Below, piece by piece: positions 9,977 to 39,752 of a stretch of 61,454 nt of DNA. Below the pieces are notes generated by a model. That model made no database searches. It had not been told where the DNA came from and saw only the letters and a program-made list of their open reading frames with translations. Within the stretch, counting starts at the first letter, position 1. Each line of letters starts with the position of its first letter. The DNA comes from a virus. Its lineage: Duplodnaviria > Caudoviricetes. The stretch covers positions 1-61,454 of IMG/VR virus record IMGVR_UViG_3300021368_000782, one strand, 5' to 3'. Position numbers and translations under genes: made by a program.

Positions 9977-10141
9977 ATGCAGAAGCAAAAATTGAAAGAC
10001 ATATTCAGTCGTCTTCGATCCATTATTGATGAATTGGAATCTGAAATCTATTCAGACCCTGCTGCATACACAAAACCAGTTGGTGATCCTAAGTTTGGGT
10101 TCTACGCCCCAGGTGAAGATGACGATGGATATCCAGATTAA
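9977..10141 (+). CDS. hypothetical protein (54 aa)
   Basis: MQKQKLKDIFSRLRSIIDELESEIYSD...DDDGYPD*. Confidence 0.65.
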   Translation: MQKQKLKDIFSRLRSIIDELESEIYSDPAAYTKPVGDPKFGFYAPGEDDDGYPD

Positions 10142-10155
10142 GTTTTTATAAAACT

Positions 10156-10206
10156 GTATAGCATGTTACAGAATAACTTGACTAAATAGAGCATAAGGTC
10201 TATACT
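10156..10206 (+). promoter_or_regulatory. NtcA box plus sigma70-type promoter
   Basis: GTA-tagcatgt-TAC at 10156-10169; TTGACT-N17-TATACT at 10178-10206. Confidence 0.75.
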
Positions 10207-10223
10207 AGACCTACGTTCATCCC

Positions 10224-10424
10224 ATGTTAAGTTTCTTACTGGCGATGACCTTAGCCCATCATAATGACGGGTCACCTTATGGGTGGCACATGACTTGTGA
10301 AAGGTTCTTACAGAGACGAATAGAAATCCAAATGGATCCCAACCTAGACCAACGGTCTAAGTGGAATCTGATAGGATATCTTAAGTCAAAAGTAGAAGGT
10401 CAATGCGAGGGGACATTTACATGA
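10224..10424 (+). CDS. small protein nested in aptamer 1 loop
   Basis: 66 aa; ATG in the 5' P2 arm, TGA in the 3' P2 arm; C-x35-C. Confidence 0.65.
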   Translation: MLSFLLAMTLAHHNDGSPYGWHMTCERFLQRRIEIQMDPNLDQRSKWNLIGYLKSKVEGQCEGTFT

Positions 10425-10459
10425 GACGCAAGTAAGTCGCGGAACGGAGCGTTCATCCC

Positions 10460-10621
10460 ATGTTTGAACTACTACTTTATGCTGATATAAAATGCACCGA
10501 TGCTGCTGATATACTCAGACGCCTCGATGCCCATCAGCATATAGCTAATGAGATCAAGGTAGAGATTGTTGAAACCATAAAGGAATCAACACCTCATTGT
10601 CCATGGGACGCAAACGACTGA
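10460..10621 (+). CDS. small protein nested in aptamer 2 loop
   Basis: MFELLLYADIKCTDAADILRRLDAHQHIANEIKVEIVETIKESTPHCPWDAND*; C-x34-C. Confidence 0.65.
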   Translation: MFELLLYADIKCTDAADILRRLDAHQHIANEIKVEIVETIKESTPHCPWDAND

Positions 10622-10663
10622 AGGAACGGGGCTAAAAATCCCTAGTATTTCAGGAGTAAACTT

Positions 10664-10828
10664 ATGAACACCCTCAACCTAATCAAAAAGCAAATCAACA
10701 AAGCTGCAGCACTGCACGATGCTCAGATTGCTATGACTACCTATCGTGGTGTCAAGTATGAGTGTCAACAAGGCGGTGAGGAAGTACATGGTACTTTCTG
10801 CTATCGCGGTCACTCTTACGCTAAGTGA
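10664..10828 (+). CDS. DUF4278-like YRG peptide
   Basis: AGGAG RBS; MNTLNLIKKQINKAAALHDAQIAMTTYRGVKYE...FCYRGHSYAK*, with two YRG motifs. Confidence 0.8.
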   Translation: MNTLNLIKKQINKAAALHDAQIAMTTYRGVKYECQQGGEEVHGTFCYRGHSYAK

Positions 10829-10835
10829 GGATGAC

Positions 10836-10931
10836 ATGTTAGCACTACAGGTAGTTGGACTCACATCCATAGGATGTGTCGCGTTCATTGGAATGATCTA
10901 TGGTGAGCTTATCCTCTTATCGAGAGGGTGA
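10836..10931 (+). CDS. 31-aa membrane peptide
   Basis: GAGG RBS; MLALQVVGLTSIGCVAFIGMIYGELILLSRG*. Confidence 0.55.
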   Translation: MLALQVVGLTSIGCVAFIGMIYGELILLSRG

Positions 10932-10932
10932 A

Positions 10933-11106
10933 ATGACCGAGAACTATGTCTATCATGATGATGACATGGATAAAGATACAAGACCACCGTCTTGTTATCA
11001 ACTCAAATATAGAGGCGTAACATACTGGTCTTGTTACCGCATTCATTTGAAAGACTACTTTGAACAATTGCTATCGGTTGAACCGATGTATAACAGGAGG
11101 GGTTGA
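10933..11106 (+). CDS. second YRG-motif (DUF4278-like) peptide
   Basis: QLKYRGVTY motif. Confidence 0.6.
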   Translation: MTENYVYHDDDMDKDTRPPSCYQLKYRGVTYWSCYRIHLKDYFEQLLSVEPMYNRRG

Positions 11107-36866: not shown

Positions 36867-36938
36867 GGGAGATTAACTCAGCGGTAGAGTGGTTCCCTTA
36901 CAAGGAATAAGTCACTGGTTCGATCCCAGTATCTCCCA
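36867..36938 (+). tRNA. tRNA-Val(TAC)
   Basis: Cloverleaf, anticodon loop CTTACAA, GTTCGAT T-loop. Confidence 0.93.
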
Positions 36939-36956
36939 CCTGATCATTTTATAACT

Positions 36957-37346
36957 ATGATTCTTGAAACACTTTTGGCACTCACGCCACTTGACTATGA
37001 CTATCTTGCACGTGCTGTTCAAGTAGAAGCGGCACCTGGAACGATGGATGAATACTGTGTTGCAGTATCTGTCTTGAATCGTGTTCGATCACCATATTTC
37101 CCCAACACAGTTGCGGATGTAGTATATGCCCCTGGACAGTATGAGGGGTTTGTCTACAAGCGACCTGTGGCGAATCCTGTTGTCGTTCAACGACTGATGG
37201 ATAATAGTAAAATGCTTTCAGCATATAGTATTATTGGTGATAGAACTGACTTCAAAGGTCAGACACAACTACCCTACAGGGTTGTGTCTGAAGATCCAAT
37301 GTGTTCTCCTAACGGTAACTTCTTCCATTATCACTGGCAATCATGA
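36957..37346 (+). CDS. SleB-like cell wall hydrolase
   Basis: LARAVQVEA, VAVSVLNRV, FPNTVADVVYAPGQY. Confidence 0.85.
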   Translation: MILETLLALTPLDYDYLARAVQVEAAPGTMDEYCVAVSVLNRVRSPYFPNTVADVVYAPGQYEGFVYKRPVANPVVVQRLMDNSKMLSAYSIIGDRTDFKGQTQLPYRVVSEDPMCSPNGNFFHYHWQS

Positions 37347-37756
37347 TCATTAGAAAACTCAAAGAAGTCAAAGAATTACTTACCAAAAAAACTAGTAACG
37401 AAATTGAATGTGCAATTGACGAAGACGTTGTTGATTGTAAAGAACTAGAAGATGATGGTTTGGATTACGAAGATCAGTATTATACAGGAGTTCCTGCTCC
37501 TCCTTATCTACAAGACGATCCATGGTTTGGTCCTGCTCCTACCTATTCACAGAAGCAACTAGACTACATGGTACAGGAAACAGAAATTAAACAAAAAGAA
37601 AGAGAGGAGAACTTCTCTGTGGAGTCTGAAGACATCCATCAAAGGATGTATGAGATTGCCACTCAAAATTCTCCTACAACCATCCAGCTGAACCCGCCTG
37701 GTGGGTCTGAGAACGTCTGGATGTCTGGTACAGGTATGGGACAATTCAATGAGTAA
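37343..37756 (+). CDS. hypothetical protein
   Basis: 137 aa ORF. Confidence 0.7.
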   Translation: MIIRKLKEVKELLTKKTSNEIECAIDEDVVDCKELEDDGLDYEDQYYTGVPAPPYLQDDPWFGPAPTYSQKQLDYMVQETEIKQKEREENFSVESEDIHQRMYEIATQNSPTTIQLNPPGGSENVWMSGTGMGQFNE

Positions 37757-37964
37757 TGAAGACTGGCGGTACACCGACTCAAAAATGAGACTTCGTTCAG
37801 AAGTATTTGAAATTCTTCTCCATCGATTCGGTTCAAAACTTGACGACAATGGAGAACCAATGTATAATATGTCATCAATTACGGAGTGCGCCCACGACTG
37901 GGTTTCACAAGGTAATAAAAGATCTGATGGTATTGTAAAGTACTATCTCGCCTATTATTCGTAG
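37749..37964 (+). CDS. hypothetical protein
   Basis: MSNEDWRY...ECAHDWVSQG. Confidence 0.7.
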   Translation: MSNEDWRYTDSKMRLRSEVFEILLHRFGSKLDDNGEPMYNMSSITECAHDWVSQGNKRSDGIVKYYLAYYS

Positions 37965-37974
37965 GTTCTTTTCT

Positions 37975-38048
<74 letters not shown>

Positions 38049-38049
38049 T

Positions 38050-38225
38050 TAGGAACTTGAGACGTTCCAACCATAGGTGCCACTCAGCAACAGGGCCATC
38101 ACTGTCCTGCAAGTTTGGAATCAGCCCCCTTTGGATATTCGCGGAGGACCTGCGTCTTACTCCATTGCAAACTGTCAGTATACTGGGTGTAGCGCCCACA
38201 TAGTATAAGGATAAGTGTAATGTCA
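38050..38225 (+). ncRNA. putative structured RNA between tRNA-Arg and tRNA-Asn
   Basis: GC-richer, no convincing ORF, multiple stems. Confidence 0.5.
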
Positions 38226-38226
38226 T

Positions 38227-38298
38227 TGGCCTATAGTTCAGCGGCAGAACGTCTGACTGTTAATCAGAATGTCCCTGGTTCGATCCCAGGTGGGCCAG
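38227..38298 (+). tRNA. tRNA-Asn(GTT)
   Basis: Cloverleaf, anticodon loop CTGTTAA. Confidence 0.92.
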
Positions 38299-38338
38299 TT
38301 ACCGAGGTTTTCTCGGTATATACATAGATTGAATTCAC

Positions 38339-38500
38339 ATGATCGATTTCGATAGTTTTACAGGACGATTTTATCTTTGCTACAAAGGACGAATTGTATG
38401 GTTTGATTGTTATGATCACGCCGAAGACTGGATTCAACTAAACAACCTGGAGGAATACTTCAATGGACTGGGACAGCACAACGAAAGATCAAAAGCGTAA
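38339..38500 (+). CDS. hypothetical protein (53 aa)
   Basis: MIDFDSFTGRFYLCYKGRIVWFD... Confidence 0.5.
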   Translation: MIDFDSFTGRFYLCYKGRIVWFDCYDHAEDWIQLNNLEEYFNGLGQHNERSKA

Positions 38501-38654
38501 AGATGCATTTCACATCTTTTACGAAAGCGTACTGAAACCAGACCATGAGCTGCGTCAAGATGCACATGAGCAGAAATGTTATAATGAACTTCTTGAATGG
38601 CGTTCCGAAGTTATTGCTTACTTGGATGGTCGTCGTGTACAAGAATTCTATTGA
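38463..38654 (+). CDS. hypothetical protein
   Basis: GGAGG RBS; FYESVLKPDHELRQDAH. Confidence 0.75.
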   Translation: MDWDSTTKDQKRKDAFHIFYESVLKPDHELRQDAHEQKCYNELLEWRSEVIAYLDGRRVQEFY

Positions 38655-38728
38655 CGGGGAGTGGCGCAGTTTGGTAGCGCGCTTGCTTTGGGAGCAAGAT
38701 GCCGCAGGTTCAAATCCTGTCTCCCCGA
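38655..38728 (+). tRNA. tRNA-Pro(TGG)
   Basis: Cloverleaf, anticodon loop TTTGGGA. Confidence 0.93.
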
Positions 38729-38752
38729 TCCCCAAATAATTGAGGACTATTA

Positions 38753-38950
38753 ATGCCAGAAATCATCAAAATCAAAGACATGGAAGCGAACATGGATCAC
38801 TATATGGATCGATGTGAAGCAGGAGAAACGTTCTTTATTGAACACGAAGATGGTAAACTGGTTGCAATGGTTCCTGCGAAGGAATTTGAGGACGCAAAGG
38901 AAATCATCAACGACTTCCATTACCAGCATAATCATGACGATGCTTGCTAA
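38753..38950 (+). CDS. Phd/YefM-like antitoxin-fold protein
   Basis: MDRCEAGETFFIEHEDGKLVAMVP resembles the Phd N-terminal domain. Confidence 0.55.
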   Translation: MPEIIKIKDMEANMDHYMDRCEAGETFFIEHEDGKLVAMVPAKEFEDAKEIINDFHYQHNHDDAC

Positions 38951-38968
38951 TTTATCTGAAATAAACTA

Positions 38969-39427
38969 ATGACATTTGAAGAACTATTTGAAGGTACTTT
39001 TGAAAACGAGAAACAGGCAAAGTCTGGTACTCAATGGTCTTGGATTGTAATCAAGAACGAGAAGATTGACACAGATACCTTCAGGTGTACTCAAGCGTAT
39101 AAGTTTGATGAAGATAACCCCTATAAAGAATACATCACCAAGTTTACCTATGACGGTAACAAAGTCTATTCCAGAATGTATACTAAAGATCTGGAATACC
39201 GCCAAGGTTGTGATCTAGTTTTTGAATTACAAGACGATGGTGTGTGGTATGGTCATAATACCTGTAAAGACTGTTGGGTAGAGGTTGGTAAAATCAAAGC
39301 ATATCAACTCTCTGACATCCGTATTAGTGAAGGTCATTACAACATCATTGATGTGGGTGTTGATCCAGTTAAGAGAGACATTGTTTGGGGTTCCAAATAT
39401 GGTTATCTCAAGTTTGTGCCAATTTAG
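38969..39427 (+). CDS. cpeT: CpeT/CpcT-like bilin lyase
   Basis: FEGTFENEKQA, NPY, GCDLVF, VWGSKYG. Confidence 0.75.
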   Translation: MTFEELFEGTFENEKQAKSGTQWSWIVIKNEKIDTDTFRCTQAYKFDEDNPYKEYITKFTYDGNKVYSRMYTKDLEYRQGCDLVFELQDDGVWYGHNTCKDCWVEVGKIKAYQLSDIRISEGHYNIIDVGVDPVKRDIVWGSKYGYLKFVPI

Positions 39428-39491
39428 CTCAGTTGGATAGAGCAGCTGTTTTGTAAACAGCAGGTCAACGGTTCAAGTCCGTTAATTGGCT
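39418..39491 (+). tRNA. tRNA-Thr(TGT)
   Basis: Cloverleaf, anticodon loop TTTGTAA; overlaps the last 10 nt of cpeT. Confidence 0.92.
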
Positions 39492-39494
39492 CTA

Positions 39495-39668
39495 GTCTCG
39501 GACAGACTTAAAACTTGCCCTGGTCGGGATGGGTTTTACGACCCCTCGGGTTTCTTGTTTTTCCATAAGAACAAGTGGTGCGGATGGGATAACCTCCCGC
39601 CAGGTTTCTTGTTTCCTGTCAAAGAACAAGTGGCGTGCATGGCTTTTGGGGACTGACCGTCCCCACCT
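39495..39668 (+). ncRNA. manA-type RNA motif
   Basis: GUCUCG..GACU..AAA..UGCCCUGGUCGGGA, two GGUUUCUUGUUU..AGAACAAGUGG repeats, GUGCGGAUGGG; located among tRNAs as known for manA. Confidence 0.75.
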
Positions 39669-39669
39669 A

Positions 39670-39752
39670 GTCGGTATGGCGGAATTGGTAGACGCGCTGG
39701 GTTTAGGTTCCAGTGGCTTTATGCTGTGGAGGTTCAAGTCCTCTTACCGACA
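39670..39752 (+). tRNA. tRNA-Leu(TAG)
   Basis: Long variable arm, anticodon loop TTTAGGT. Confidence 0.92.

Follow-up and report, generated by a model that had tools for sequence, protein, structure and literature searches.

A gene-bearing, interlocked double aptamer predicted in a cyanophage operon leader and related to glutamine riboswitches

The window analyzed here is the whole of the IMG/VR virus record IMGVR_UViG_3300021368_000782 (61,454 nucleotides, nt), a 61-kb fragment of a T4-like cyanomyovirus that is about 33% complete. We focused on the leader at 10214–10656, which precedes a small DUF4278-like gene. An earlier note, made from the sequence without database searches, had recognized two successive glutamine-riboswitch-like units in this leader (units 1 and 2), each with an open reading frame (ORF1 and ORF2) in the loop of its P2 stem. 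The half-motif pairs, the P2 stems, both ORFs, the AGUCG/CGACU complementarity between the units, an NtcA-type box, and a promoter all lie where that note had placed them. No further copy of the double-aptamer locus was found elsewhere in the 61-kb record. The features are listed below, with helices named according to the nested fold for which we argue.

10156–10169, + strand: GTA-N8-TAC box of NtcA-type consensus, read from the sequence; adjoins the -35 hexamer on its upstream side
10178–10206, + strand: sigma-70-type promoter, TTGACT (10178–10183), 17-nt spacer, TATACT (10201–10206); predicted transcript start at about 10213
10214–10218, + strand: CGUUC, 5′ strand of the outer P1; partner 10624–10628 (nested fold) or 10442–10446 (alternative fold)
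10220–10227, + strand: P2(1) 5′ arm, UCCCAUGU, holding the ORF1 start codon
10224–10424, + strand: ORF1, 66 amino acids, phrog_6471, occupying the P2(1) loop; AUG in the 5′ arm, UGA in the 3′ arm
10419–10426, + strand: P2(1) 3′ arm, ACAUGAGA, holding the ORF1 UGA (10422–10424)
10427–10434, + strand: J2/3 of the outer aptamer, CGCAAGUA; CGC predicted to match the strand that contacts the ligand, AGUA forming half of the E-loop (from the Rfam alignments and the core nucleotides given in PMC6698751)
10435–10439, + strand: P3 5′ strand, AGUCG, covarying with 10615–10619
10442–10454, + strand: inner hairpin GAACG, loop GAG, CGUUC, the predicted P1 of a permuted inner core; second CGUUC at 10450–10454
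10456–10462, + strand: P2(2) 5′ arm, UCCCAUG, holding the ORF2 start codon
10460–10621, + strand: ORF2, 53 amino acids, phrog_504, occupying the P2(2) loop and continuing through the 3′ arm, CGC, and the P3 3′ strand
10602–10608, + strand: P2(2) 3′ arm, CAUGGGA, from sequence and covariation
10609–10614, + strand: J2/3 of the inner core, CGCAAA, from sequence and the Rfam alignment
10615–10619, + strand: P3 3′ strand, CGACU, from covariation
10620–10629, + strand: GAAG (J3/1, the other E-loop half; 10620–10623), GAACG (outer P1 3′ strand; 10624–10628), and G10629, from sequence and the Rfam alignments
10618–10656, + strand: predicted expression platform, CUGAAG (10618–10623) with UUUCAG (10648–10653), then the GGAG ribosome-binding site (10653–10656), from covariation and folding
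10664–10828, + strand: DUF4278-like (IF17-like) gene, 54 amino acids, phrog_545, the gene most likely controlled by the leader

P2(1) of the window contains one C-A mismatch. The GGAG at 10446–10449 sits 10 nt before the ORF2 AUG, and the last five codons of ORF2, GAC GCA AAC GAC UGA (DAND-stop), are the aptamer core itself, with the UGA at the P3/J3-1 border.

The locus is common to Synechococcus and Prochlorococcus phages: blastn matches fell in 421 phage records, both aptamer halves were present in all ten isolate loci fetched (syn9, gp196–198; S-8S56; Syn19; S-CAM1; S-IOM18; S-SCSM2R; S-CAM3; S-TIM5; S-P4; and S-TIM54), and at least 120 viral contigs carry the 22-nt junction motif. Because of this recurrence, the half-motif layout of the window is, as a sequence pattern, far beyond chance resemblance. 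A pattern scan of 185,579 prokaryote genomes returned eight matches, at least three of them phage-like, on contigs of 188–194 kb from metagenome-assembled genome, single-amplified genome, or isolate assemblies; no clear cellular copy was seen among the eight, which were not inspected further. Glutamine riboswitches are already known in T4-like cyanophages, as reported in PMC9964418 and PMC9602691.

The kinship with glutamine riboswitches proposed in the earlier note was borne out by natural relatives that lack the ORFs, which also served in place of the loop deletion it had suggested. Each unit of a related locus is either compact or long; in the first set of loci, the distance from CGUUCA to the core in unit 1 was 16–51 nt or 203–238 nt, with no intermediate values. 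The Rfam gathering cut-offs are 35 bits for RF01739 (type I, glnA) and 33 bits for RF01704 (Downstream-peptide/glutamine-II). Five of the six loci with two compact units matched RF01739, at 38.4–43.6 bits; the 13 loci in which a unit bears an ORF gave no match. In a further set of 14 compact loci, four passed RF01739 at 36.0–42.9 bits (L059, L168, L264, and L261), the ORF-less L059 scoring 42.9 bits. The window itself has the P1 CGUUC/GAACG, single A, and P2 hairpin that type I calls for; its E-loop strands AAGUA (10430–10434) and GAAG (10620–10623) flank P3 as in type I only if the fold is nested. All ligand-contacting letters named in PMC6698751 are present in both cores. Since ORF-less natural relatives pass RF01739, the leader at 10214–10656 most likely belongs to the glutamine riboswitch family and is a predicted glutamine sensor.

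How the two units relate to each other is indicated by the Rfam alignments. Each of the five matches in the loci with two compact units is a single alignment that begins in the 5′ half of unit 1 and ends in the 3′ half of unit 2; the best alignments run through CGUUCA, P2(1), ACGCAAGUA, AGU, 38–46 nt within P3, ACU, and GAAGGAACG. Since these alignments span both units in this way, AGUCG/CGACU would be the P3 of one outer type I aptamer. Covariation indicates that this complementarity, pointed out in the earlier note, is a real helix. Eighteen loci were picked for a non-G second base in AGUCG, and in all 17 that could be parsed the change was matched by a partner 165–192 nt downstream (AAUCG with CGAUU in 14 of 14, AUUCG with CGAAU in 3 of 3); no variants at the third or fourth base of AGUCG occurred in the contig collection searched. 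A second lineage, with a 9-nt spacer, has an inter-unit helix of 8 base pairs (bp), paired at 6.52 of 8 positions versus 5.65 after shuffling (reached in 0 of 1000 shuffles; 23 distinct strand combinations), and only 13–37% paired in shifted registers. Its helix positions 1, 4, 5, and 8 exchange A-U/G-C, C-G/U-A, G-C/A-U, and U-A/G-C/A-U, respectively. We rejected a local mini-P3 hairpin in each unit of this lineage, which is kept in 50–56% of distinct variants versus 96–100% for the inter-unit pairs.

The E-loop is divided in the same way: unit 1 supplies AGUA, the 3′ half of unit 2 supplies GAA, and the two strands meet only when the fold is nested. Among single phage aptamers built on the same core (82 distinct matches), the 5′ half lies within 60 nt in 68 cases and a local P3 stem of 4–5 bp is present in 63; they bear an ordinary hairpin where the window carries unit 2, and some precede the same gene (MNTLN...). 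Given the split E-loop and this plain P3 hairpin in single aptamers, the second unit appears to be an insertion in the P3 loop. The minimum-free-energy fold is nested in all six loci with two compact units and in L027. The earlier note had read the locus as two self-contained tandem aptamers, a view not sustained by the E-loop halves, P3, the Rfam alignments, or the single aptamers. The units are probably interlocked, judging from these sequence comparisons, one core being nested in the P3 of the other.

The same note had called for P1 and P2 to be checked for covariation. P2(1) is paired at 6.41 of 8 positions versus 5.0 in partner shuffles (maximum of 200, 5.27) and P2(2) at 6.21 versus 5.70 (maximum 5.84), so the proposed long-range P2 stems are indeed kept; P1 is invariant, which neither supports nor contradicts its part of the proposal. 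Within ORF-bearing units the arms change together, as in UCUCAUG/CAUGAGA, UCUUAUG/CAUAAGA, UCCUAUGU/ACAUAGGA, and the full swap GAUUAUGG/CCAUAAUC. A CCCC/GGGG swap was also seen, at the cost of an Asp-to-Gly change in the protein. When 39 sequences with two long units were laid on the nested structure, 86.3% of the cells were paired, compared with 32–51% in slid registers; six pairs changed on both sides, and the covariation score was 0.108 versus 0.058, a value reached by 0 of 500 shuffles. As far as covariation can tell, P2(1), P2(2), and P3 are maintained across 140–190 nt. A permuted local aptamer, pairing the unit 1 3′ arm with the unit 2 5′ arm, was tried and rejected (5.47 of 8 positions paired versus 6.41 and 6.21 for the cis pairings).

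The downstream gene had been assigned to DUF4278 in the earlier note, and the assignment as DUF4278-like holds. The window protein scores 19.3 bits against DUF4278 (PF14105), with an expectation value (E) of 0.0015, which is below the Pfam gathering score of 25.3 bits; among related loci, each of the 37 sampled homologues reaches E ≤ 0.01 (the best, 2.3e-7), and a YRG motif is invariant twice in the alignment of downstream-protein homologues. Between the aptamer and this gene, CU[G/A]AAG pairs with CUU[C/U]AG. Among 128 loci the variable pair was G-C in 60, A-U in 38, G.U in 26, and A.C in 0, and no partner was found in four. The 3′ strand of this helix abuts the GGAG ribosome-binding site, with the AUG 8–11 nt after AGG. 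C10618 and U10619 in its 5′ strand also belong to P3, and the GAAG of the E-loop lies in the same strand, so that the platform helix and the aptamer fold would be mutually exclusive. In the P3-variant phages, the platform partner of position 10618 also changes, or only wobbles. On the pairing evidence, this helix is a normal expression platform for the DUF4278 gene.

In syn9 (L001, ~1058–1110), L003, L054, L066, L110, and others, the platform loop holds an extra conserved element of about 30 nt, consisting of AACGGAUCC, a covarying hairpin with a GAAA-type loop, and GAGAAGGUUAA. The window lacks this element, for which Rfam offered no match at E ≤ 1.

Several results weigh against a nested sensor of this family. 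The window gave no glutamine-family Rfam match at gathering score, nor did its region 10100–10900 (801 nt) at E ≤ 10, because the inserts exceed the reach of the RF01739 model; three weak matches in that region to a small nucleolar RNA, a microRNA, and a long non-coding RNA (E 0.4–9.5) were judged to be chance. Nine of the 14 compact loci in the further set likewise had no glutamine-family match at gathering score, and the compact unit 1 of S-P4 alone fell below both cut-offs (26.4 bits with RF01704, 25.8 bits with RF01739). The minimum-free-energy fold of the full-length window RNA (-131.7 kcal/mol) retains both P2 stems (7/8 and 7/7 pairs) and the platform helix and closes unit 1 on its own P1 (5/5 pairs); the nested fold lies 5.2 kcal/mol above this minimum and the tandem fold 7.7 kcal/mol above it. 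As the P1 sequence is invariant, covariation cannot pick the P1 partner, and so does not separate outer/inner from tandem pairing. The shuffle controls ignore relatedness, and fixed patterns were used to collect the loci; selection on the 5′ strand defined the P3-variant set, and 10 of the 39 rows with two long units were picked for a P3 variant. Support for P2(2) extends over about 5 bp only, its positions 6–8 pairing in 41–48% of ORF-bearing units.

The most serious rival is a tandem arrangement in which unit 1 closes at 10214–10218/10442–10446 and unit 2 at 10450–10454/10624–10628, AGUCG:CGACU being a kissing (pseudoknot) contact between the junctions. On this view, unit 2 would resemble a type II switch, its second helix being formed by CUGAAG and the strand next to the ribosome-binding site. 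The closure of unit 1 on its own P1 in the minimum-free-energy fold fits this arrangement, as do the loci L168, L261, and L264, which pass RF01739 as one 48–49-nt unit (36.0–37.1 bits), and L037 and L180, in which unit 2 passes RF01704 (34.0 and 33.2 bits; L037 also passes RF01739, at 38.4 bits). Tandem glnA RNAs are already known, being mentioned in PMC2864571. A profile comparison of ORF1 with ORF2 (hhalign probability 72%, E 3.3e-5), which suggests that the two are remote paralogues, would fit duplication of a whole aptamer-plus-gene unit. Against a tandem arrangement, each unit by itself lacks one half of the E-loop and, in the lineage of the window, a separate P3; the strands that covary in P3 come from different units, and a local pairing does not hold up. 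The AGUCG:CGACU helix would cross both P1 helices, and single phage aptamers have a plain P3 hairpin exactly at the place of unit 2. The RF01704 alignments show non-canonical pairs in the second helix, and the L037 and L180 scores are marginal. The nested and tandem folds could also be two states of one switch, the tandem fold then being its OFF state more than a rival. We consider two independent tandem aptamers unlikely.

Both units vary in what their loops carry. Among 123 distinct sequences, the unit 1/unit 2 states were compact/long in 78, long/long in 38, compact/compact in six, and long/compact in one; the 120 loci of the 9-nt-spacer lineage comprised 52 compact/long, 18 long/long, 16 compact/compact, and 27 long/compact, with seven unparsed. 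In unit 1 of S-P4, a UUCG tetraloop replaces ORF1. The phage Sf-CH5 (L283, 576–1163) carries a 573-nt homing endonuclease gene in a 588-nt insert lying exactly between GGAACGGAG and CGUUCA, with CGTT repeated at its left edge; the endonuclease seems to target the invariant riboswitch junction. The linkers of L077 and L114 contain inserts of 64 and 99 nt whose ends match the Sf-CH5 insert and which are probably decayed copies of it. With ORF1, ORF2, and the endonuclease inserts, all three terminal loops of the nested model can take inserts. In L132, L141, L143, and L148, the 5′ end of unit 1 has a compact P2-like hairpin (CUUAUG, loop, CAUAAG), then a second UUCAUCUUAUG copy, and then ORF1; this duplicated 5′ end looks like a scar of the arrival of ORF1.

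Such insertions raise the alternative that the sensor died when the genes came in, its pieces being kept for coding of the DAND-stop, as translation signals, as a homing-endonuclease target, or as recombination repeats between phages. The missing Rfam match in the window, the coding nature of the unit 2 3′ half, the endonuclease gene sitting exactly in the conserved junction of Sf-CH5, and direct repeats of about 15 nt flanking ORF1 would all suit such relics. Yet compensatory changes in P2(1), P2(2), and P3 occur within the ORF-bearing loci themselves, one of them at the price of the Asp-to-Gly replacement; the unit 2 3′ half is retained where ORF2 is absent; and the platform helix covaries. 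We regard a dead sensor as improbable.

The claim that both P2 loops contain genuine genes rests on open frames and codon-position signal. All distinct sequences are open, 39 for ORF1 (195–225 nt) and 92 for ORF2 (150–198 nt), with lengths changing in steps of three. Pairwise differences at codon positions one to three are.337/.257/.533 for ORF1 and.453/.274/.543 for ORF2, and the uncorrected ratios of nonsynonymous to synonymous differences (pN/pS) are 0.39 and 0.55. The ORF2 frame runs from its start in the arm to the same stop in the core in 121 of 126 long units; ORF1 passes a stricter span test in 35 of 42, and in one ORF1 subfamily the frame continues through GGA CGC AAG UAA (GRK-stop). 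The N-terminus of each protein is hydrophobic, two Cys some 35 residues apart are invariant in each, and the AlphaFold models have three helices, with a predicted local distance difference test (pLDDT) score of 80–81. No Pfam family matched either protein, PHROGs label both "unknown function," Foldseek returned no PDB match at E ≤ 0.001 for the models, and Atlas searches found viral hypothetical proteins only. ORF1 has no ribosome-binding site. Among distinct sequences carrying ORF2, 115 of 181 have GGAG as the inner-hairpin linker, 10 nt ahead of the ORF2 AUG; among those without ORF2, 0 of 36 do (counted without regard to relatedness). A tblastn search against phages found an unannotated 45-codon ORF1 homologue between hli and psbA in two T7-like cyanopodoviruses, P-GSP1 (L151, ~525–660) and MedDCM-OCT-S05-C849 (L152, ~510–650), with no aptamer halves near it; the gene family thus also occurs without the riboswitch, consistent with its having arrived there as a passenger. 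We conclude from these coding patterns that ORF1 and ORF2 are real conserved genes. That they are instead long structured spacers that merely remain open, as the lack of any assigned family, function, or fold and of a ribosome-binding site for ORF1 might suggest, is very improbable given the open frames in steps of three with the third codon position the most variable, the conserved Cys residues and N-terminus with confident models, the lone podovirus homologue, and the GGAG linker found only with ORF2.

In our preferred explanation, to which we assign a probability of about 65%, the leader at 10214–10656 is one interlocked double aptamer of a cyanophage operon, belonging to the glutamine riboswitch family and carrying two passenger genes. 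Its outer aptamer would be type I, glnA-like, built from P1 (10214–10218/10624–10628), P2(1), J2/3, P3 (10435–10439/10615–10619), and the J3/1 strand GAAG. The inner core would lie within the P3 "loop" as GAACG, the loop GAG, CGUUC, A, P2(2), and CGCAAA; it would be circularly permuted and use P3 from the opposite end. The terminal loops would be the sole sites that tolerate insertion, two of which carry genes in the window (ORF1 in P2(1) and ORF2 in P2(2)). CUGAAG is predicted to alternate between P3 plus the E-loop and pairing with the strand that leads into GGAG, the ribosome-binding site from which the DUF4278 gene would be translated. If the leader works as gifB and the type-2 switches do (PMC6212724, PMC6698751), glutamine would favor the aptamer fold, freeing the ribosome-binding site and turning the DUF4278 gene ON. 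The minimum-free-energy fold would then represent the OFF state and the nested fold the ligand-stabilized ON state. As a corollary, the folded aptamer would hide both nested start sites, and ribosomes on ORF1 or ORF2 would block its folding.

A more tentative extension, which we consider possible but rather doubtful, is a three-gene nitrogen toggle made of two fused sensors, in which the nested genes and the IF17-like gene would be oppositely controlled. With glutamine, the interlocked aptamers, offering two sites that share P3 and are possibly cooperative, would fold across about 415 nt, burying the ORF1 and ORF2 start sites and exposing the ribosome-binding site ahead of the IF17-like gene. 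When glutamine is lacking, ribosomes on ORF1 and ORF2 would hold the aptamer open while the platform helix keeps the IF17-like gene off. If this were true, a riboswitch would control genes that it contains and would in turn be controlled by the translation of those genes, its binding core doubling as codons.

Of 119 distinct sequences upstream of the leader, 85 have a promoter of the form TTGAYN-N16-18-TANNNT that ends 4–12 nt ahead of CGUUCA, nearly all at 7–9 nt. Because these hexamers recur just before CGUUCA, the aptamer probably begins at the 5′ end of the transcript, leaving ORF1 a leader of about 11 nt. GTAN8TAC, a putative NtcA site by its consensus, is present in 72 of the same 119 sequences and mostly starts 52–61 nt before CGUUCA. 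In a class II NtcA-activated promoter, GTAN8TAC is centered near -41.5 and replaces the -35 box. The box in the window is centered about 50 nt before the predicted start, 5′ of a good TTGACT -35 hexamer, and so does not have class II geometry; some role for NtcA is possible given that the box is conserved. The Prochlorococcus phages P-HM1 (L150) and P-RSM1 (L154) differ from the window in having two successive GTAN8TAC boxes ahead of the aptamer, the second only 5–6 nt before CGUUCA.

A perfect inverted repeat, AGGTCTA-TAC-TAGACCT, at 10196–10212 spans the -10 hexamer and ends one base before CGUUC, and the GGTCTATAATAGACC palindrome is repeated in many related loci. It could be an operator for a dimeric regulator; under read-through transcription from upstream, it would instead form a hairpin adjoining the aptamer.

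Metatranscriptome contigs from four runs (at most three samples, from two studies) cover parts of 10212–10818, which establishes presence in RNA libraries but does not prove transcription. Some of them join 10459 to 10605 through UUCG, the compact form of unit 2. None lies on 10000–10204 and one X15 contig starts at 10212, neither of which counts as evidence for the start site.

Two further regions of the window complete the description. A second, weaker DUF4278-like ORF follows the first:

10900–11106, + strand: ORF of 68 amino acids, weakly DUF4278-like (E 0.021, below the cut-off)

It has a YRG motif, lies 72 nt 3′ of the first DUF4278-like gene, and has no PHROG match; no aptamer ahead of it was detected in the Rfam search of 10100–10900. 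Six tRNA genes and a wcaG RNA (39546–39644, 97.9 bits) lie at 36867–39752. The related contigs L019, L236, and L248 contain PhotoRC-II and manA RNAs which, with wcaG and the tRNAs, make up the usual non-coding RNA set of cyanomyoviruses.

The usual picture of a riboswitch aptamer is of a compact, non-coding element that folds as it is transcribed. In this leader, the helices of a predicted sensor of about 50 nt appear to be kept by selection while spanning genes of 140–190 nt and, in one phage, an endonuclease insert of 588 nt, and core nucleotides serve as codons. Since covariance-model searches miss such cases, as they did with the window, split or gene-bearing riboswitches may be under-counted. 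One core circularly permuted inside the helix of another would also be a new way to join sensors. A full-text literature search (supplements excluded) found no description of genes in aptamer loops, of core nucleotides used as codons, or of a core nested in the P3 of another, though an earlier account of a nested or gene-bearing architecture may exist. The cultured phages syn9 (gp196–198), Syn19, S-CAM1, and P-HM1 share the architecture and offer a direct test system for a link between host nitrogen status, translation of the embedded genes, and the IF17-like phage gene.

Among known systems, the closest is the type I glnA RNA (RF01739) of the Synechocystis gifB leader, as described in PMC6212724. 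The window shares with it the P1 CGUUC/GAACG, the single A, P2, the E-loop (AGUA with GAA) and P3, the position upstream of a DUF4278/IF17-like gene, and an inhibitory helix beside the ribosome-binding site that would compete with the aptamer. Unlike type I, the window has a P2 that closes a 190-nt loop forming a gene and P3 strands that lie 175 nt apart and enclose a second core; where the type I model has CGG and AACGC, the window has CGC in J2/3 and AACGG at the 3′ end. The core letters CGUUC, CGC, and GGAACGG resemble those of glutamine-II (RF01704), as given in PMC6698751. According to that paper and PMC6212724, the glutamine-II riboswitch of marine picocyanobacteria is an ON switch located ahead of short DUF4278-type ORFs. 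Whereas the second helix of glutamine-II directly flanks GGAACGG, the candidate strand in the window lies about 20 nt (or 42–50 nt) further on.

Tandem glycine aptamers are a known tandem riboswitch arrangement. Like tandem riboswitches, the leader would have two ligand-binding cores; unlike them, these would not stand in series, one core being circularly permuted inside the helix of the other and sharing that helix. Group I and group II introns carry ORFs in their peripheral loops, and the likeness to them is that long-range helices are kept while terminal loops host genes, including, in the third loop of Sf-CH5, a homing endonuclease gene. The predicted leader differs from these introns in being small and metabolite-sensing with no ribozyme, in having small Cys-containing proteins as its passengers, and in that the start and stop codons of the passengers overlap the stems and the binding core.

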